Virus record (IMG/VR): IMGVR_UViG_3300043781_000019
Length of the DNA: 64,000 bases
From: an uncultured virus (IMG/VR IMGVR_UViG_3300043781_000019)
Taxonomy: Duplodnaviria; Heunggongvirae; Uroviricota; Caudoviricetes; Herelleviridae
Direction: 5' to 3' (one strand)
A program made the position numbers and the translations under genes. Positions 1 through 53,953 of this stretch are shown piece after piece. The notes beneath the pieces are model-generated. The model searched no databases and was not told the DNA's origin. It saw only the letters and a list, made by a program, of their open reading frames with translations. Position 1 is the stretch's first letter. The number at the start of each line of letters is the position of its first letter.

Positions 1-2456
1 GACTTTAATAATTGGTTAGCACTATCAACATTGCCCTTAGCATCTACATATGAAGGTGCCCATGTGCTAGGTGCATTACCTGCAATAAACAGTGTATTGA
101 AATTATAGTTGTCTGTACTTACTTTTGCATAACTAGCATTTGTAGGGGCTATTCCATTATTAGTAACATCACCTGTTCCTGTTTGCTCTGTGCCACTAAT
201 AAAACTCTTATTACTATCATACCACATTACACTTAGCTTTATTGTTCCAGTATCTCCATAAACCTTTGCAGAGTATGCTGTTCCTGCGGTTACCGCTACA
301 TAGTCACTAATAATACCATTGGTAGATGCAGAACTACTACCATTGTTACCATTCATATACTGGCCTTTAGTGGCAGTCTTTAAAACAAATTGATTAGTAT
401 GCCCTAAAGCCGTTCCAGATAGAGAGTCGTTAACAATACCAGTAACATCTGTTTCTGATACTCCACCTGATATTTGATTGGCCATCACGTTTAACTGGCC
501 TTGCATAACCGATAGAGAGTCACTATGCTTTTGGATATTCTCAGCACTTAATGCAATCTTAGTACTAGTTTCTTTAATGGCTGTGGCTTGGTGGTCAATA
601 TCTTGTCCATACTCTGCTAAAGTCTGAATGTTTTTATCAGCAACCTGCTTTAACACAACTGCTTCTTGTTTAAAGTAAGCTTTTATTTTATTTGCTAAGG
701 TTTCGCCATCAATTGCAATTGTTGAATTATCTGCAAAAATATTATTTGTTTGTATATAGGTATTAAGGTCATTGTAAGCCCCATCAAGTGTGCTATGGTC
801 TACCTTTACTGCATCAGCACTAGATACATCATTAGGGTACTGATTCTGTATCTGTGTCCACACATGCCCAAGAGTGGCCTTATCTGCCCCTGTAAGATAG
901 TCTTCACTAGTTGCTTGTGAAACTTGCGTAAGCGCGTTCCCTACATCTTCTCCGGCTTGTACAGCCTTATCATACCCATCCTGCGCAAGCTTTCTTAAAG
1001 TGGCAACTATAGCCGTATTGACATTAAAAGAAGCATTGTAATAGTTAGAAAAATTCCTGTCCCACTCAGTAGGATCAACAGTTGTATCCCCGCCAGCATT
1101 TAAAATTGGTTCCAAGTATGCTGACAAAGTGTTATAAGACGTATCTAAGGAGCTATGGTCAACACTATTAGTCTCTGCCTGTGCAACCGTGGCTGGATAT
1201 TCAGTTTGTATTTGCAACCATATTGTTCTGGTGGCTTTCTTGTCAGCCCCAGAAATAATGCCGTCACTTGCCATATTGTCAATAGTCTTTTTAACATCTG
1301 TATAGCTATCCTGAAGGCTTTTTAAGCTGTCATCGTAAGGCTTTAATTGATTATTAATAGCAGCTGGAAGTTCATCTGTACTTACTTTTGTAGCAATTTC
1401 ATTAGCATTAACAGTTATCTGAGCCTTATTCTCTTTGACACCGTTCTGTGTCTTAGTAATAGCGTCCCATACACCACTAAGATCAGTATCAACAGTAAAC
1501 TTTGTACCGTCTAAGTTATAAATACCATCGGGTTTAAGAACCAAACCTGTAGACTGAGATCTTATCGTTACATAGCCATTATTATCAATGAGAAACTCAC
1601 TTGATTTTGACCCAGTGCCGAATATCTTGGAATCTTCCTGCCTACGTAGCCTTATTTGGCCGTCAGGAGTTTCTTCAAAGTAGGTACGCCAATCTTGATC
1701 ATCCTGCATCATAGATACACGATAGTCACCATCCTGCCCTATATAAACATAGTAAGCATGATTATCTTTCGTACCATCAGAATTAATATTTCCTCTGTGC
1801 CCATATATGACTTCAGGAGCGTTTTGAACTATAGCATTTCTAGACTGACCACTACTATCTGAATTTCCAGGAATGTTTTGTGCGTTAATAGGAGTATCGC
1901 CATCATCTGTAACATGAGATACAGCAGGAACATCCGGGCGTACCAACATAAAGGTATTACCAGAAAATTTTAAGGTAAGATTTCCTCTACCATCATGAAT
2001 ATTGTATCCTTGATCAGGATAAACAATTGTTCGTTTGTTAGCAGTTGCATAATTTGAAAAGTCAGCAGGTTCATAGTGTTGAGAAGCCTGATCCGTTAAT
2101 TCTGATGCTATTTTAGTATCTGGGTATCTTGAAATCACAATCGGCTTGGCTGCATCGGATTCAAGAAGTCCAATCAGAACAATATCGCCAACATGAATCG
2201 GATTTATAACCCCGTAAGATCTGCCAAATCCGTTACGACCTGCAAACTCGCTTGGCAAAAGTGCTTGATTTGTTCCCCTTGTTGCTGGGCGACTTGTACT
2301 ATTAGTTGTAACAGGAACAAATATAACATAGTTTTCTTTGTAGTTAATATCAGTTACCCTTGCAATTAGCAATGTTGAAACAATACTGTCACTAGACTCT
2401 ACTAATTTTGATCCTAGACTTGACTGTATTCTTGATGATTTCCCTTTTAGCTCCAA
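1..2456 (-). CDS. Baseplate/tail spike-fibre protein, 3' end outside window
   Basis: Frame from TTG at 2456 (MELKGKSSRIQSSLG...LLIARVTDINYK) resembles the gene that follows the tail lysin in K/Twort-like phages; two internal helical repeats (GADK..W.QIQ..YP); absent from the ORF track because truncated. Confidence 0.65.
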   Translation of the reverse strand, partial: MELKGKSSRIQSSLGSKLVESSDSIVSTLLIARVTDINYKENYVIFVPVTTNSTSRPATRGTNQALLPSEFAGRNGFGRSYGVINPIHVGDIVLIGLLESDAAKPIVISRYPDTKIASELTDQASQHYEPADFSNYATANKRTIVYPDQGYNIHDGRGNLTLKFSGNTFMLVRPDVPAVSHVTDDGDTPINAQNIPGNSDSSGQSRNAIVQNAPEVIYGHRGNINSDGTKDNHAYYVYIGQDGDYRVSMMQDDQDWRTYFEETPDGQIRLRRQEDSKIFGTGSKSSEFLIDNNGYVTIRSQSTGLVLKPDGIYNLDGTKFTVDTDLSGVWDAITKTQNGVKENKAQITVNANEIATKVSTDELPAAINNQLKPYDDSLKSLQDSYTDVKKTIDNMASDGIISGADKKATRTIWLQIQTEYPATVAQAETNSVDHSSLDTSYNTLSAYLEPILNAGGDTTVDPTEWDRNFSNYYNASFNVNTAIVATLRKLAQDGYDKAVQAGEDVGNALTQVSQATSEDYLTGADKATLGHVWTQIQNQYPNDVSSADAVKVDHSTLDGAYNDLNTYIQTNNIFADNSTIAIDGETLANKIKAYFKQEAVVLKQVADKNIQTLAEYGQDIDHQATAIKETSTKIALSAENIQKHSDSLSVMQGQLNVMANQISGGVSETDVTGIVNDSLSGTALGHTNQFVLKTATKGQYMNGNNGSSSASTNGIISDYVAVTAGTAYSAKVYGDTGTIKLSVMWYDSNKSFISGTEQTGTGDVTNNGIAPTNASYAKVSTDNYNFNTLFIAGNAPSTWAPSYVDAKGNVDSANQLLK

Positions 2457-2460
2457 AAAA

Positions 2461-5400
2461 TTATCCCTTCAATCTTAAAACATATCCATCATGAGATCCC
2501 TGCATATCTGACAGGGTGACTATCTTACAACCACCACTTGTATCTGTTGGGGGGTTGCCATTCCAACCCATTAATTTTCCTCCACCAACGTAAAACATAA
2601 TATGGTTACAACCATAAAGCAAGACACAATCACCAATTTTCATTCCATCTGTGCTCGTAGACGGAATAGGAACATGCGTGAACAATGAACTATCATTAAA
2701 TGTCCAAGTAGTACCATTAATATTAAGACCAACATGGTTAAAACAAGCAGATATAAATCCTGAACAGTCAAGCTTTATTGGATCTTCACTTGACTCCAAG
2801 ATGTTACCACCGCCATGGCCGCCACCCCATACATACCACTCAGATCTTTTGCACTTAGACTTTTCAAAAGTTGCCCCATACTTAGCAGCTTTTACCGCCG
2901 TTGCTGGGCCAGCATCACCTGAAAATGCACCGGATCCATCAGAGCTATCATTTCCATCTCCACCAGATCCATCAATAGCAAGGTAGTTAACAGGAGCTTC
3001 ACCCATATACCCACCTTGGTAATCTATTCCAGTACCCCACATATATGTAGCCGTGAATCTCGGATCATATTGACCGTCTTGATATGTAAGTCCTCTAGTA
3101 ACGCCAATCTCTGTTTGAAAACCTTCTGTAAAGGAGAAAGTGTGCGATACTGACTCAATATAATATCTAATGTGGTCATAGGCATCATTTAATATTGTAC
3201 CAATTCTTATATCAGGATCTCCAAGGATTGTAATAGTCCCTGACAAAAAATTAACGTTGTTGGCATACCAGTTATACAAAGTTGTTTGAAAAAAGTCTGT
3301 GTCTAATAATGAACTAGTTGACTTTTCACCAGAATCTGTCTTGTCATAGTTCTTAACTGCTGTATCATATGCCTTCTTATCTATTTTACCACTTTCTGCT
3401 GCATTATAGATAGCAGTTAGCTCTTCATCAGAAACGTTTTTAAAGTAGGGCTTCGATTTAGTAAGAAAATCAGACAAATTACTAGAACTCTTAATAAACT
3501 TTGAAACCTCTGTATAGCTAAGCTTATGCGTACCTGTATTTGCCTGACCCCCGCCTTGGTCTGTATTCATAATATCCTTATAAACAACTTCGGTAAGATT
3601 ATAAGCATTGCTAATGTATGCATTAACTAACCTGCTTGCTTGGAACATTGAAATATTATTAGACTTATTTGCAAGCTCCTGTGAGTAAGTCAAGGGCTTC
3701 TGTGTCAAATTAGTCTTGCTTGTCGTTGTGCTTAGAAACTCAACAACCTTTTCATAGTCGTACATAGTTCCTTTTTCATTATTTGTGCTTTTGGCTTTTT
3801 TAATATCACCGCCATTAATACTATAGTCTTTGTCATCAGCACCTGTTACATATAGATCAGAAACCTCCATTTTAGCATATCCATAAACCTTTATTAGGTC
3901 TAAGTTTGTTTTTGGAAAGCTACCGAATGCTAATGAGTCAACACCTATAGATAAAAGTCCACTAGCAGGGTTATCAACAAAAACAGAATACTGTTCCCTA
4001 GCAGATCTGCTAACTTGCTTAGTAATAATAGCATCGTTACCTATTGTTACTTGCTGTAAGTTATACCAATCTTCTGGGTTAAATGGTGTACGCCTTACTG
4101 TAAACTTTGAAATGCCATCTGAAGTTGAATCAAAGAACATCTCGTTAAATGGCTGTCGTTGTGCAGCTTGCATCAACTCATACAAAGTACCAGAAAAGTT
4201 AACGAAATTTGAACTGTCTTTTAGCTTCTCATAAGTATCCCATGATGTCATGTTACTATAGTCAAGAAAGCTCCATATAGTGTAGCCATTATTATCATAG
4301 TTTAAAATAATGTATGGCTTAAACCTCTCAATAAGAGCACTCTCAATACCTGCTACGTTATTGTCATAAAAAGCAACACCGCCATTTGGACTAGCAGCTT
4401 TTTCAGCAGCAATAGCAGCATCTGTTGTAGTACCATCACCATCATCACTTGACCCTGATGATGTGCTTGAACTTCCAGACGTTGACCCTGAGGTAGAGCT
4501 ACTCTGCCCCGTTATTTGCTTATACCATGTATTAAGACCTGCTGCATATTGACCTACATCTGCTTCAAAATAATGTGCAGCCTTCAACCCTTTAGCAAAA
4601 TCATAAACAGTTTTAGCACTAGATAAGGCATTACCTGTACTCTTGTCATCCTTAGCTAAAGTGTTACTCATAGCTAGCGCCCAGTATGCCTTACTCTTAA
4701 AATGTGCATAAGCACCACCTGCACCATCAGTTGCGTTAGACCCTGATGTTGCTCCTTCTTGATTGGCATACTTTATTCCTGAGAAGTTGTTATCGTTCTT
4801 AGCAGCATAGGAGTTACCGTCAAGACTACCTACTTCAACACCAACTTGAGCAAGAATAAACTCCCATTTAATGCCAGTCTTACTACCTATCTGCTTGCAC
4901 AATGTCTTTAATTGTTCAGATGTTGCCCCAGATCCTGCATCAAAGTCCCCTACACTTGCTCCAGAACCGCCAGAATCGCCAGAGTCGCCACTACCTGTAT
5001 ATGCGTCTGGAGAAATGGAACTATCCCATAGCCATCCCATCCCGGATAATTGTTGCTCAACTTCTGAAATCATACCAATACGAAACTGAGAAAACACCTT
5101 AGAAAAGCTTTGCCCGGTTACTTGCACCATTTCTGAATTTGAAGAATATTCACCATCAATAGCTACTTCGGATACAATTCCGGTCATAATGTTGTTGTTA
5201 ACAGTAGCTGTTACACCTTTATTTAACAAATCTTCATTGCTATCAATCCTGATTACAATAATATCATTCTCGCTAATAACGTTGTCCCATCGAACACCAT
5301 TGTTTCTTCTTAAAGGAAGGACAACGGAAAAGGTTGCAGAATCATCAGACATGTTGTTTGTTGTTTTAAAAGAGATAATGTCAGAGTTAAAAGCATTTTG

Positions 5401-49481: not shown

Positions 49482-49652
49482 TATGTTGACTTTTTAAAAT
49501 AAACGTGGTATAGTATTTATATAAGCTAGTTGGAAGGACAACCATATAAACCCTGCGATTCATGCTTGGCCAAAACATTTTTGCAGTAATTGATGGCTTG
49601 ATGCTTCCAGAAAGGGCGCCCGCTGGAAGCTACAAAATGGTGGCGCTATACT

Positions 49653-49725
49653 GCTTCCTTAGCTCATTAGGTAGAGCACTTGTTTTGTAAGCAAGAGGTG
49701 ACTGGTTCAAGCCCAGTAGGAAGCA
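49653..49725 (+). tRNA. tRNA-Thr(TGT)
   Basis: Cloverleaf, loop TTTGTAA, no encoded CCA. Confidence 0.9.
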
Positions 49726-49963
49726 TAGATTCAAATAAGCAATAGGCGATACCTTAAGCAAAATAACTAATATTTGGATTAAGCACTAAAAAGTGTTGAC
49801 ATTTAAAGCAGCACATGGTACACTTATTACTGTTGAAAGGCAAAAGGGATAAGGAAGATATAAAACGTGAGTTTTGTTAGTTAGAAAAATTAAAAAATAG
49901 GCCTTGACATTTTAGATAAGTTGTGTTAGTATTAAATTATGGTCATTAATAAGTGGCCATTTT

Positions 49964-50035
49964 GGACCGTTAGCTTAATGGTAAAGTCGTCAGCTCATAC
50001 CTGATTTTATGAACGTTCGAGTCGTTCACGGTCCA
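49964..50035 (+). tRNA. tRNA-CAT (Ile2 or Met)
   Basis: GGACCGT/ACGGTCC acceptor, loop CTCATAC. Confidence 0.8.
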
Positions 50036-50040
50036 TTTAT

Positions 50041-50133
50041 AGTCCTGTAGCACAGTGGTAGTGCACCCGGCCTATACCCGGCATATGTCAGTAGATTTTC
50101 TGAACGACATCGGTTCGATCCCGATCAGGACTA
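50041..50133 (+). tRNA. Atypical tRNA, TAT anticodon, long variable arm
   Basis: AGTCCTG/CAGGACT acceptor, good D and T arms, loop CCTATAC, ~25-nt variable arm. Confidence 0.7.
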
Positions 50134-50261
50134 TTAAAAAGTTATAACGTAGCAAAATTTGGCCTAGGGAAACGAGGCTTACTGATCTAAGTAAAAAATC
50201 TACGTTTAGAGTTTCCTTGTTAATATCTCTTTAAGGGATACTAGCAAGCTTCTCTATAAAT

Positions 50262-50336
50262 GTTCCCATAGCACAACTGGATAGTGCATCTGTCTTCTAA
50301 ACAGTAATTTTCCCAGTTCGAGTCTGGGTGGGAACA
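50262..50336 (+). tRNA. tRNA-Arg(TCT)
   Basis: Cloverleaf, loop CTTCTAA. Confidence 0.88.
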
Positions 50337-50372
50337 TTGTGTATGAAAAAAATAAGTGAAAGGAGATAAAGC

Positions 50373-50660
50373 ATGACTATTCTTTGCCCTAATAAGTTTA
50401 ATCAGTACTTAGAAGATCACAATTTAGAAATATATGATGTTGCTAAGATGATGAGAGATTCCCCCTATAATAAAAGTAGAAGAACTCGTCAAGCATATGT
50501 TAGACTTCTAGAGCAAGCTTTTATGTACGGGTGGTCTACAGTAAATGCTCTTGGTGGTGGCTACGAGCCAGGGGTTCACAATGGACAAGATGGCGGAATA
50601 TCTGCTAAGTATGTTGCTAAAATTATTGGGTGCAAGGTTCAAGATATTGTAGGATGGTGA
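50373..50660 (+). CDS. Hypothetical protein, possibly HTH
   Basis: AAGGAG RBS; C-terminal AKIIGCKVQDI. Confidence 0.55.
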   Translation: MTILCPNKFNQYLEDHNLEIYDVAKMMRDSPYNKSRRTRQAYVRLLEQAFMYGWSTVNALGGGYEPGVHNGQDGGISAKYVAKIIGCKVQDIVGW

Positions 50661-50666
50661 CTTTAA

Positions 50667-51149
50667 ATGAATCATAAGGTGGTATTTGAAGATAAAAATG
50701 TATTAGTATTTCACATTTATAGTAGCCTTGACAACCCTACTATGCTTAAGGTACAGAAAAGTTTGTACTTCCTTTGGGCTTATTACTCTGGAACCTATGG
50801 TAACTTAGTAGGTAAGGACGGACTAGATATTTCAAAAGAGGATTACCCAGAGTCCCTATTTAAGGGAAATTTTAAGGCACTTATGTATGGACCTGTTGAT
50901 ATAGATGTTCTTAAAAAGCAAAAAGAGAACTTCTACAGTAAAGATAAGTGGAAGGGGTATACCCCTAAAGGAAGTTCAGAAATAGAAGTTATGGGGTTCG
51001 TTAATGACCTATTGGGTCAAATAAACGCTGTAAATGACTTTGGACTAATTAATAGATGCCATGAAGATAATTGTTGGAAGCAAGCCTATGAAAATGGTAG
51101 GGAAAGCTATATGGATCTTGATGCTATAAGAAAAGAGTACCAGATTTAG
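50667..51149 (+). CDS. Panacea/SocA (DUF4065)-like antitoxin
   Basis: LKVQKSLYF...LF...F.A..YGPV...L....H....WKQA. Confidence 0.75.
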   Translation: MNHKVVFEDKNVLVFHIYSSLDNPTMLKVQKSLYFLWAYYSGTYGNLVGKDGLDISKEDYPESLFKGNFKALMYGPVDIDVLKKQKENFYSKDKWKGYTPKGSSEIEVMGFVNDLLGQINAVNDFGLINRCHEDNCWKQAYENGRESYMDLDAIRKEYQI

Positions 51150-51163
51150 TATTACTTATTAAT

Positions 51164-51235
51164 GTTTCCATAGAACAATGGATAGTTTACCGGTTTCCTA
51201 AACCGTTAATTCCGGTTCGAGTCCGGATGGAAACA
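51164..51235 (+). tRNA. tRNA-Arg(CCT)
   Basis: Cloverleaf, loop TTCCTAA. Confidence 0.88.
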
Positions 51236-51272
51236 TATTGGCAAATATGCTTATAATACTTTTGCCAATTGC

Positions 51273-51301
51273 TTGCATTAGAAGTAAAAGTGTGTTATAC
51301 T
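51273..51301 (+). promoter_or_regulatory. Sigma-A-type promoter of the large-RNA block
   Basis: TTGCAT-17-TATACT with TG. Confidence 0.7.
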
Positions 51302-51317
51302 TAAAAAGTAGTAAAAC

Positions 51318-51907
51318 CTTGCTCCTTGAAAACTGAATCCGATTCAACCATGTGTATAAGGTGATTGCTTCACCGTCATGGATACCCATGCTAAGTAATG
51401 TCGTAAGCTGCTTTTAGGGATACCTTTAGCAACTTGCAGAATATATGGAAACATATAGGAAGGCTGTAAAAGCAGTCAATTAATGGGTAGTGCTAGTTGT
51501 TGTGACATAAGGCATAGGACTGGTTGGGTAGGCAATAGACGCCCTGTTGGGAATAAGCCAGCAAGCCCCTGTGGTAGCTCTTGGGGAAACGCTGGTACGC
51601 TATAACTACCTTAGCTATGAAAAGCGGAAGGCACCGTGTGAGGCTGATAAAAAAGCTTCACGATAAAACCAGAAACTAGTAAAAGTAGGCTAAGGCTAAA
51701 TTTAGAAAAATACTATTGGAGTATTAAAATAAATCGAATGCAGGCTGAAATTTGGGCATCAAAGAATGCGCCCTTGCAAGTTAAAAGCACTTAGTTGTTA
51801 TAGGGTAGCTCCCTATAGCACGGGCTAAGTGGGCAAGTTGCCTAATAATGGTAGCAACAATATGGTAGGAGTAAAAGACGGATCGGGTTTAGTTTTCAGG
51901 GAGCAAG
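51318..51907 (+). ncRNA. Large ornate ncRNA, probably ROOL-like
   Basis: 590 nt closed by a 28-bp terminal helix; many internal hairpins; tRNA-adjacent; family inferred from size and context. Confidence 0.6.
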
Positions 51908-51960
51908 TGTGCTTATAATGCATATTATGTTGCTGTATTCAAGTAGGTAAGAGAGTACAA

Positions 51961-52174
51961 ATCGCTGTGGCGGAACAGGTAAACGCTATGGGTGATAGAC
52001 GAAGGCTTGGTGTCAAGGCAACGGTAAATGGCGGAACATAAATGGACTGAGTAGTTGCCAGCCTTAAAAAGTAGATGAATAGTAATTCGCCTGTGAAGTT
52101 AGTCAACTGTGACCATATCCGTTCCTAATCCATCTACAATGTGTCATGTCGGGTGCAAATCCCGACCAGCGATA
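51961..52174 (+). ncRNA. tRNA scaffold with large structured insert
   Basis: ATCGCTG/CAGCGAT acceptor, D arm, T-like arm GTCGG-GTGCAAATC-CCGAC. Confidence 0.65.
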
Positions 52175-52407
52175 TTACCGGTAAAGCCTAGCGCGCTTGC
52201 TAGCGCGGACTAGTGGGCGAGTATAAAGCGTGGTCACATGTCTTGCACTTCAAGGCAATGTGGGAACCACCATGACTGAGGGTTCAGAAACCATCGCCTC
52301 GGATAGCGGAAACATGAGCAACTGGCGTTTAGGCGTTAACGGAAACCAGAAATCGCTTTTTCGTGGTATCTGTTATCAGGTTCAAATACCGGCGGTTGCA
52401 TACAAGG

Positions 52408-52480
52408 TTGGTATTAGCTAAGTGGGAAAGCGTCCCATCACGAGGTGGGGAATGAGCAGGTTCGATTCCTGCATACCACA
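52408..52480 (+). ncRNA. tRNA-like RNA with 8-nt anticodon loop TCACGAGG
   Basis: Acceptor, D and canonical T arms. Confidence 0.7.
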
Positions 52481-52845
52481 TATTAGCCGCGAAGGTCTGG
52501 AGCAATCCTACGTTCCGATGCAAAAGCCTGTGCACGGGTTATTAGAAGGCTAAGCTACATATTGTTGCTTGTACATTGGCAACTAAAATATTAATGTAGA
52601 TAATTCAACTCCCCTGCAAGGCGAAAGCCTATGTTGCAGAAAGCCCCCATATTGATACGGGATATGGGAAAGTAGCAGACGTGCTCATGATGGTGCTGTT
52701 CGCGGTCTCGGCCATCAATCAGTTTTATGTACATGGTAAAGCCCTACGTGTTTGCTAGCATGGACAAGGGGTGATTACAAAGGTGTGCTGAATTAGCTTG
52801 GCACGTAACCAAGGACTTAGAAACCTTCGCCTTGGATAGCATGGG

Positions 52846-52918
52846 TTGAGAGTAGCTAAATGGAAAAGCGCCCCGTCATTAGGCGGGTAATAAGTGGGTT
52901 CGATTCCCATCTCTCAAA
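52846..52918 (+). ncRNA. tRNA-like RNA with 8-nt anticodon loop TCATTAGG
   Basis: TTGAGAG/CTCTCAA acceptor, D and canonical T arms. Confidence 0.7.
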
Positions 52919-53177
52919 TAGGAATGCATGGCAGGCATGCTTAATTGTAGCTGGGTTCCCGAATGGGAGTAGGTTAAATCTTAGAAATCCCAAGCAGACA
53001 ACATGTGTTCTGAGTCTCCGAGAGTACTGGGACTTAAATAATAGTACTCATATGTAAGGTTAGAGTCTTTCTAGAAGGCAAAGCGGTTGACATTACCCAA
53101 TACCGTATGCTGAGTCACATGACTGGTCGATAAAATGACCACCAATTCCATTTGGGTTGTGGCTAGTGGACAGCATT

Positions 53178-53234
53178 GCGACTGAGGATCAATTTTATGG
53201 CCTCTACGATTAGGTTCGACTCCTGACAGTCGCC
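53178..53234 (+). ncRNA. Minimal tRNA-like element lacking one arm
   Basis: GCGACTG/CAGTCGC acceptor plus TTAGG-TTCGACT-CCTGA T arm. Confidence 0.55.
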
Positions 53235-53281
53235 TTACAATTCCGGAGTTGTAAAATAGATTGATTGATTGAGGGAAAACA

Positions 53282-53953
53282 ATGGAAGAAAAAGAAAAAC
53301 TTAAGGCGCCACGAGTACCATTAACGTGGCTTGATGAGCGGTTAGAAGATTTAAAGTTTAGCTATTACGATTTAGCTAGGTTATATGCGCATGATAAAGA
53401 ACAAGCTAACTCAGCAATCAGTATATTAAGTCGCTATTATAGGGCAGTTGAGAACTACTTTCAGTGGCTTGCTTGGGATAAAAATATTGCTAAAAACTCT
53501 GCACAAACATACATACAGCATAAAGATGGAACATACGAAATTGGCGATGTAGATTTACCTGATCCTAAGTATGAAGTGTCTATTAAGATGCAGCATAGGT
53601 TGTTTCGTGCAGTTGACGCAAGTGACTACTACCGGATGGACCTTGATGATGAGTTTAATGGTGTAGTTGGAAGTGATGATGGCTATCAAGACCTAATCAA
53701 CCTGTTATGGCCCGATGGGGATACCGTACTAGATAGTTTGAATGTAAATGTAGTTTCTTTAGCTATCATAAACACAATCCGAGGAATCAATCTTGATGAA
53801 GAAGATAGACAATCTGTAGGTACAACAGAGGCTGTAGATGCTATAGCAGATATTAGCAAAATTGAAAAACGTGTTAACAGTTTTAGGAGAAAAGAAAAGG
53901 ATTACCTTGAGTCTCTTAATGGACGTAAGAAAGGCATTAGTAAAATTAAATAA
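53282..53953 (+). CDS. Hypothetical protein
   Basis: ORF with RBS and downstream terminator. Confidence 0.6.
   Translation: MEEKEKLKAPRVPLTWLDERLEDLKFSYYDLARLYAHDKEQANSAISILSRYYRAVENYFQWLAWDKNIAKNSAQTYIQHKDGTYEIGDVDLPDPKYEVSIKMQHRLFRAVDASDYYRMDLDDEFNGVVGSDDGYQDLINLLWPDGDTVLDSLNVNVVSLAIINTIRGINLDEEDRQSVGTTEAVDAIADISKIEKRVNSFRRKEKDYLESLNGRKKGISKIK

Follow-up and report, generated by a model that had tools for sequence, protein, structure and literature searches.

A non-coding array of tRNA-framed and modular structured RNAs beside ROOL in the tRNA island of a Mooreparkvirus-like phage

The stretch analysed here, referred to throughout as the window, comprised 64,000 nucleotides (nt) of DNA from an uncultured virus (IMG/VR record IMGVR_UViG_3300043781_000019), a virulent Herelleviridae phage of Lacticaseibacillus whose nearest named relatives are Lb338-1 and Lbab1 of the genus Mooreparkvirus. 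An array of approximately 1.35 kb was located at positions 51930-53281 on the + strand, adjoining the 3' side of a ROOL RNA, closing the tRNA island of this Mooreparkvirus-like phage and ending at the start codon at 53282. The array was non-coding and comprised five tRNA look-alikes (T1 to T5) and the RNA modules between them. Its parts were conserved in other phages as a modular mosaic, contained folds supported by covariation and, generic tRNA matches aside, were absent from Rfam. The structured RNAs of this locus form a genuine, conserved and modular set, and a processing mechanism for them is plausible. On balance, the array is probably a tRNA-punctuated RNA operon; its tRNA-like frames would act as handles for RNase P and RNase Z and as scaffolds for cargo RNAs.

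A coding role for the array was rejected. The first-pass annotation, made from the sequence alone, had seen no credible open reading frame (ORF) here, and this was borne out: the longest frames were 63-68 amino acids (aa), none of the four tested matched PHROGs, and the frame was not kept in relatives. The 65-aa frame started within a tRNA-like element and was broken by non-triplet indels in Lb338-1 and Lbab1. The Infernal comparison with Rfam proposed by the same annotation was carried out on 51200-53400 at the gathering score, and also at E values up to 10. Rfam 15 gave only ROOL, together with generic tRNA on T3 and T4. Matches to Plastid-ycf2 (on the opposite strand of the look-alikes) and FMN (13.5 bits) were at chance level. 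No second ROOL (RF03087) was matched inside 51930-53281 at E up to 10, and GOLLD was not matched at E up to 10 in 51200-53400 or in positions 1950-3080 of the temperate phage R29.1.

Four tRNA-like folds had been annotated, starting at 51961, 52408, 52846 and 53178. All four were found at these positions, and a fifth (T2) was added at 52318-52400. The fold at 51961 was real, but the element (T1, 51961-52174, + strand) spans 214 nt. It comprised an acceptor stem (51961-67 with 52167-73), a discriminator A at 52174, a D-arm, a T-arm (52148-66) and an interior of 162 nt. The T-loop reads TGCAAAT, unlike the usual T-loop. The D-arm resembled that of long-arm (class II) tRNAs and may be tRNA-Leu-like. 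A neighbouring element is annotated as tRNA-Ser in Lbab1. Derivation of T1 from the tRNA-Leu that follows ROOL in phages LP65 and 8014-B2 was rejected; those tRNAs were 75 nt long and had no similarity to T1.

The T1 alignment contained 15 distinct sequences: the window, four phages, seven IMG/VR contigs and three full-length metagenome contigs. The four phages carrying the long form, all from L. plantarum and spread over three taxa, were LP65, Lpa804, Bacchae and ATCC 8014-B2. A metagenome scan for T1 returned 12 stretches, comprising six close variants (three of them partial), four partial motif-only matches taken for chance and two stretches without a profile match. Nested helices were obtained from RNAalifold, and two pseudoknot helices that cross them were obtained from a column scan. 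PK1 (7 base pairs, bp) pairs 51989-95, just after the D-arm, with 52087-93 in the middle of the interior. PK2 (5 bp) pairs 52033-37, in the apical loop of the first long hairpin, with 52121-25 in the second hairpin. The resulting model of 59 pairs in nine helices was paired in 98.2% of cells, and 21 of the 59 pairs were changed on both sides, including two in each pseudoknot helix. The observed value was reached by 0 of 500 shuffles on four of five measures, and slid-partner controls gave 0-4 compensatory pairs. Long loop stretches were invariant in all 15 sequences, including those from phages of different families. T1 had no Rfam match even at E up to 10. A group I intron within a tRNA gene was considered as an origin for T1 and rejected: T1 minus its interior has no anticodon arm, no intron family was matched in the window at E up to 10, and the pairing of the PK1 strand after the D-arm with the mid-interior also counts against it.

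Module M (110-130 nt) was present in two copies, both on the + strand. Copy A (52180-52308; nhmmer E 2e-49) is the long form and carries repeats D3 and D4, and copy B (52735-52841; nhmmer E 1.6e-29) is a short form with a shorter third hairpin. The module comprised four helices, invariant loops and a possible loop-to-tail pseudoknot that is invariant in sequence. The M model, built on 15 distinct sequences, contained 37 pairs, was 99.0% paired and had eight pairs changed on both sides; these values were reached by 0 of 500 shuffles, and slid controls gave 0-3. M was found in 16 viral contigs and in named phages, all of them Lacticaseibacillus-associated. A looser M pattern returned 50 stretches in viral contigs, among which only the 16 known contigs were real by nhmmer. 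In genome contigs the pattern was too loose, giving at least 120 stretches; among the matches listed none was real by nhmmer (five at E 0.004-0.009). On the 5' side of M, a T1- or T2-type frame always ended within a few bases, and M was followed by a T2- or T4-type frame.

The remaining intervals on the + strand were a trailer after T3 (52481-52600), module S (52601-52724) and spacer S2 (52919-53177). The trailer consisted of conserved sequence around a hairpin of variable length, followed by a variable part. Positions 52456-52499 were 86% identical to R29.1 (locus L004 2106-2149), in which the trailer hairpin was swapped for a longer one. Module S contained three conserved hairpins and was matched at nhmmer E 1e-42 to 7e-37 in Lb338-1, Lbab1, R29.1, C3.1 and one viral contig. 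Both tetraloop hairpins quoted by the first-pass annotation were present, GGC-GAAA-GCC at 52620-29 within S and GGA-GCAA-TCC at 52499-508 within the trailer. S2 comprised a variable 5' part and then a block at approximately 53045-53177. The 3' block of S2, together with T5, was nearly identical in three Mooreparkvirus genomes, whose array regions were otherwise 83-88% identical. The expectation of unknown RNAs between the look-alikes thus held for M and S, with the amendment that T1, itself a look-alike, is the largest structured RNA of the array. Covariation in the spacers was likewise found for M. S was represented by four distinct full-length sequences, so informative changes were few, and S2 by three, with 0 of 70 predicted pairs informative.

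T3 (52408-52480, + strand) and T4 (52846-52918, + strand) were both reported by ARAGORN as 'tRNA-???', with anticodons of 4 nt (acga) and 2 nt (tt), respectively. They scored 43.1 and 45.4 bits against the Rfam tRNA model, above the RF00005 gathering score of 29; T1, T2 and T5 were unreported even at E up to 10. Copies of T4 with 88-92% identity were found in Lc-Nu, CL2 (annotated tRNA-OTHER), Lrm1 and R24.1. The T3/T4 family was represented by nine distinct sequences from Mooreparkviruses, the temperate Lacticaseibacillus phages Lc-Nu and CL2, and three viral contigs. Acceptor, D and T stems were kept with compensatory changes (eight pairs). In a shifted register the anticodon helix was paired in 97.8% of cells and closed a 6-nt loop, or comprised 4 bp with an 8-nt loop; in the standard register 57.8% were paired, and two of the pairs formed in none of the nine sequences. 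Variation in the anticodon-like loop was confined to two central bases, and there was no U at the usual position 33. Neither element had the hallmarks of a decoder, namely a 5-bp anticodon stem, a 7-nt loop and an anticodon of 3 nt that can be read. The aberrant register was kept in 9/9 sequences; T3 and T4 are thus no ordinary decoders, and conservation extends to their unusual shape.

T2 (52318-52400, + strand) was a tRNA-like frame with acceptor 52318-24/52393-99, discriminator A and two T-stem mismatches. T5 (53178-53234, + strand) was a mini tRNA-like element with a 7-bp acceptor (53178-84/53227-33), one hairpin, a T-arm and discriminator C. T5 was the same in Lb338-1 and Lbab1 and 77% identical to the element that follows M in R24.2, where the acceptor differs in sequence and still pairs. 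Taken together, all five look-alikes had an acceptor stem and a T-arm (that of T2 with its two mismatches), and none had a normal anticodon arm. A D-arm was also present in T1, T3 and T4, and T1, T2 and T5 were without any anticodon arm. In 5/5 genuine tRNAs of the island and in 4/5 look-alikes, the discriminator was an A with a T after it, and CCA was not encoded.

The frames were constant and their interiors were not. The acceptor, D and T parts of the T1 frame enclosed 23 different interiors, which fell into six classes by length (45-46, 51, 57, 62, 64 and 161-165 nt), counted after copies of the window's own record and 120 chance loci had been set aside. Six unrelated interiors stood behind the same T1 frame in other Lactobacillaceae phages. 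The 3' 30-34 nt of the frame were 97-100% identical in 18 further records of 11 phages, and Iacchus and phiJL-1 had full T1-type frames with yet other interiors. The T2 frame enclosed at least four different interiors; in the R29.1 copy the T-arm was intact and the interior different. A 60-nt mini tRNA-like element with acceptor, D-arm and T-arm and no anticodon arm was also observed in phiJL-1 (locus L222 1017-1076). Its acceptor has the same sequence as that of T1 in the window, and it lies approximately 45 nt upstream of the T1-type frame at the right end of the record.

Pieces of the array were found in 25 records of 17 phages, and in no record did they amount to 80% of the stretch. The window differs from Lb338-1 in having the long T1 interior and an additional block of 430 nt (M-T2-T3), which was 91-94% identical to the temperate phages R29.1 and R24.2. 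In temperate phages the same modules occupied a gene-free gap of 0.5-1.1 kb. This gap comes after a gene annotated DUF1492 in Lc-Nu and CL2; the R29.1 protein upstream of the gap had no Pfam match. In R29.1-type phages the array ended at a strong terminator with a 13-bp hairpin and a run of seven T (R29.1 L004 2990-3050; also L022 and L012), an arrangement in these temperate relatives that is in keeping with a discrete RNA unit. Just upstream of this terminator lie 8 nt complementary to the ribosome-binding site of the following gene, a site that could thereby be sequestered. No shared downstream protein partner was found, the downstream proteins of the window and R29.1 being unrelated (BLASTP E 1.8) and without an informative Pfam match. 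To judge from these alignments, the modules travel between unrelated phages of one host group, virulent and temperate. One giant GOLLD-like RNA was rejected as a description of the array because the modules recombine independently.

The same exchange of modules among phages of one host group bears on a different view of the look-alikes, which would make them decoys or competitive inhibitors of host tRNA-binding factors (tRNA-targeting defence nucleases or toxins, processing enzymes or charging enzymes), with the interiors reflecting an arms race. Such a role would suit tRNA-like frames with hypervariable interiors, and also the concentration of T3/T4 variation in the two central bases of the anticodon-like loop. 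Decoys for host anticodon nucleases had been suggested by the first-pass annotation as one function of the pseudo-tRNAs, and nothing positive was found for this. The T3/T4 arms have a conserved non-canonical form, with a 6-nt loop or 4 bp and an 8-nt loop and no U33, and so would mimic anticodon-nuclease substrates poorly. No linked defence or counter-defence gene accompanied the array, the proteins downstream in the window and R29.1 being unrelated as described above. The decoy explanation was judged unlikely.

The tRNA-punctuated operon was preferred on the following grounds. RNase P, RNase Z, the CCA-adding enzyme and T-loop modifiers all recognise a tRNA by its acceptor/T-arm half. This half was conserved in the look-alikes, the interiors were freely replaced, and the 3' context was tRNA-like. 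A precedent was provided by ROOL (51324-51898, + strand; Rfam RF03087, 210.8 bits against a gathering score of 99.1, full model 1-574). ROOL lay flush between tRNA-Pro and tRNA-Leu in LP65 (locus L005 3784-4500), and in 8014-B2 (locus L007 1441-2081) it abutted tRNA-Leu, overlapping the tRNA-Leu start. The ROOL ends in these phages would be set by tRNA processing, and in this phage group tRNA maturation is thus already implied to free RNAs other than tRNAs. Co-transcription of ROOL with tRNAs is raised in the ROOL paper (PMC5737381). The conserved acceptor/T-arm half, the tRNA-like 3' context and the ROOL precedent together led us to read the array as a tRNA-punctuated operon. The processing-signal idea of the first-pass annotation was retained to this extent; transcript ends were not seen.

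From this arrangement we infer co-transcription, cleavage at the frames and any downstream function of the array RNAs. The array would be a polycistronic non-coding RNA locus on the + strand that continues the tRNA/ROOL island, with transcription either starting at a promoter of its own near 51903-51919 or reading through from ROOL. Folded cargo RNAs would be separated by, or built into, the tRNA-like frames. Host RNase P would cut at each acceptor 5' end and RNase Z after each discriminator. Module M, module S, S2 and the framed RNAs would thereby be set free, each as a stable molecule of its own. T1 would then be a natural tRNA scaffold around a 162-nt pseudoknotted domain.

Several results weigh against this reading. 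Folding energies were unremarkable: the minimum free energies (MFE) of T1 (z -0.84), M, S, S2 and the trailer were no better than those of dinucleotide shuffles. The 'hairpin-dense' spacers of the first-pass annotation were not upheld by folding energy, since six spacer pieces from M, S, S2 (z -1.1 and -0.3) and the trailer (z -0.9) had z values of -0.3 to -1.1. The only outliers were T2 (z -2.8) and T5 (z -2.5). Structure is supported by conservation and covariation. In the T1 shuffle test, 396 of 500 shuffles reached the observed value on the fifth measure, further pair types. Each structure was tested on the alignment that had yielded it, the M sequences come from one host genus and the T1 sequences fall into two main clades; with this low sequence diversity, the compensatory counts represent few independent events. 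The relative L021 has a truncated T1, and together with the damaged T-stem of T2 in the window this indicates that some elements are decaying.

Expression was checked in assembled contigs of public RNA runs, of which 13 were listed and four compared in detail. All 13 runs contained small shares of the sampled words, none as much as half. Contigs of the four runs covered ROOL, plus two small pieces of the array only, which came from run X1 (kind uncertain; contigs 52934-53166 and 53072-53220). The lack of coverage over the remainder of the array counts neither for nor against its expression. Run X3, a small oligo-dT transcriptome, gave a single 544-nt contig (51347-51889, 95-99% alike) covering ROOL and nothing on either side, which fits an abundant discrete ROOL RNA in a relative. 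The RNA runs thus place ROOL on record, and processing at the look-alikes is a step that we infer. A possible promoter -10 region upstream of the array (51903-51919, + strand) was a 17-mer, direct repeat D6, 88% identical to 51241-51257 before ROOL. It was weak: TATAAT was kept in two of three genomes (the window and Lb338-1; not Lbab1), a consensus promoter scan made no call at 51903-51919, and the promoter 10-mer showed no enrichment (15 occurrences in the window, with 14.85 expected). A terminator scan of the window found none between the array and the ORF at 53282.

Much of this could also be expected if the array consisted of decaying tRNA genes or filler in the tRNA island, that is, of non-functional remnants spread by recombination at conserved tRNA sequences. 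The T-stem mismatches of T2, the truncated T1 of L021, the folding energies, the lack of expression evidence in the RNA-run contigs and the narrow host range would all be accommodated. Helices, however, were kept by compensatory change, with 21 such pairs in T1, eight in M and eight in the T3/T4 family. Loops remained invariant over long stretches in phages of different families, the aberrant anticodon register was the same in every T3/T4 sequence, and the S2 3' part and T5 had stayed nearly identical in three genomes while the rest of their arrays diverged. Decay was therefore regarded as a distinctly unlikely explanation for the array as a whole.

The missing terminator before the ORF at 53282 would be in keeping with a further alternative, a long cis-acting leader acting on the downstream genes through attenuation, translation or mRNA stability. 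The ability of the R29.1-type terminator flanks to pair with the ribosome-binding site of the next gene, and the position of the array-like gap after the DUF1492 gene in Lc-Nu and CL2, point the same way. Against a leader, the downstream genes differ between phages (the BLASTP comparison above), T1 and its relatives occur among genuine tRNAs with no fixed downstream gene, and riboswitch and leader families of Rfam had no match in the window or in the R29.1 array. A leader function was considered very unlikely.

On the + strand the island runs from five tRNAs to ROOL and then to the array. The distance from the ROOL end to the start of T1 is 62 nt. This closeness of the array to ROOL suggested that the array might be part of the ROOL particle, or cargo for it, transcribed with ROOL and carried on or inside a ROOL cage. 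The same modules, however, were present in temperate phages in which ROOL was not found in the 5.4 kb examined, and the X3 contig of a close relative covered ROOL alone and ended at 51889. An association of this kind was rated most improbable.

The five ordinary tRNA genes of the island (49652-51236, + strand) were identified with ARAGORN. The tRNA-Ile gene (anticodon TAT, 50040-50134) was 95 nt long, with an extra hairpin of approximately 28 nt in the variable region; a 91-nt tRNA-Ile (TAT) was present in Lpa804 too (locus L006 497-587). Lpa804 also contained a 117-nt match to the tRNA model (L006 1682-1798, 47.6 bits, no ARAGORN call). It resembles a tRNA with an extra arm of approximately 45 nt and would be a further expanded tRNA-like element in a Lactobacillus phage island. 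A 160-aa ORF between tRNA genes (50667-51149) matched the SocA/Panacea antitoxin domain below threshold (19.4 bits against a cut-off of 25.7), and a homologue was present in Lb338-1 and Lbab1. In Lb338-1 (locus L002 1114-2256) a transposase gene lies between the tRNA-Arg gene and ROOL; there was none at that place in the window.

Phage tRNA islands are already known for large enigmatic RNAs (ROOL and GOLLD) and for two small stable RNAs of T4. The present locus adds at least two structured RNA families, T1 (214 nt, pseudoknotted) and module M, neither of which is in Rfam 15. No description of the array elements was found in the literature; a 2023 catalogue of 10,006 candidate viral RNAs (PMC10690425) could list them. 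The principle of a tRNA frame with exchangeable cargo was not described in the literature found. The non-tRNA RNAs of phage tRNA clusters become experimentally tractable here, in phages grown on food-grade lactobacilli. If the scaffold reading is true, the locus would provide a natural precedent for tRNA-scaffold RNA expression.

A broader proposal is put forward tentatively, as a possibility to which we give a minor share of belief. Lactobacillaceae phages may use tRNA frames as a natural RNA expression platform, with interchangeable active interiors and flanked modules such as M. The acceptor/T-arm frame, sometimes with a D-arm, would guarantee RNase P/Z cutting, CCA addition and stability. 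The interiors and M might, for instance, be RNAs that inhibit host defence or the host enzymes that handle RNA, and phages sharing a host, virulent and temperate alike, would exchange these active domains. RNAC of T4 would then be an old, unrecognised example.

Among known systems, ROOL and GOLLD occupy the same niche as the array, being found in phages and prophages beside tRNAs, as described in the ROOL paper (PMC5737381), and in a preprint the GOLLD linker is reported to be able to hold tRNAs. The array differs from both in being a string of separable, independently recombining modules, not one conserved large fold.

T1 is like transfer-messenger RNA (tmRNA) in having an acceptor/T-arm domain around a large interior with pseudoknots. 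The R29.1 T2 frame was weakly matched by the tmRNA model (17.7 bits against a gathering score of 47). In contrast to tmRNA, T1 keeps a D-stem and its interior is full of stop codons, with no tag reading frame; for the window ARAGORN made no tmRNA call, and Rfam RF00023 had no match at E up to 10.

By analogy, the look-alikes may also be compared with the tRNA punctuation of MALAT1-mascRNA, mitochondrial transcripts and the tRNA-miRNA units of MHV68, in which a tRNA shape is present without decoding; in the array this shape would be the mark for RNase P/Z cutting. The mascRNA model gave weak, sub-threshold matches to two R29.1 frames (17.9 and 14.9 bits). These punctuation systems are eukaryotic or organellar.

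The closest comparison among phages is with RNAC and RNAD of T4 (species 1 and 2), small stable RNAs that end the phage tRNA cluster and whose role is still called unknown in a 2010 review (PMC3014915) and a 2022 study (PMC9697503). The array is likewise at the end of a tRNA cluster and on the tRNA strand; in the T4 annotation RNAC/RNAD come directly after a tRNA. Read from its sequence, T4 rnaC (locus L220 1909-2047, minus strand; MFE z -4.6) was a tRNA-framed RNA: two hairpins form its interior, its T-arm is canonical, and its seven-position acceptor-like stem contains two U-U mismatches. It has the same design as the tRNA-framed elements of the array. Homology between T1 and rnaC was not found by nhmmer: profiles of T1, M and S gave no match better than E 4 in the T4 region, and a small tRNA-like profile matched only the T4 tRNAs, plus the rnaC T-arm at E 0.046. 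A 9-mer shared by rnaC with the LP65-type T1 interior was within chance by a rough estimate. The two loci differ in host phylum, and the window has five frames and also unframed modules, with T1 larger and pseudoknotted.

In engineered tRNA scaffolds, a laboratory device, a cargo RNA replaces the anticodon region and is then processed and stabilised by the cell. The layout of T1 and T2, with their exchangeable interiors, is similar, and a natural phage counterpart of the tRNA scaffold would be new.

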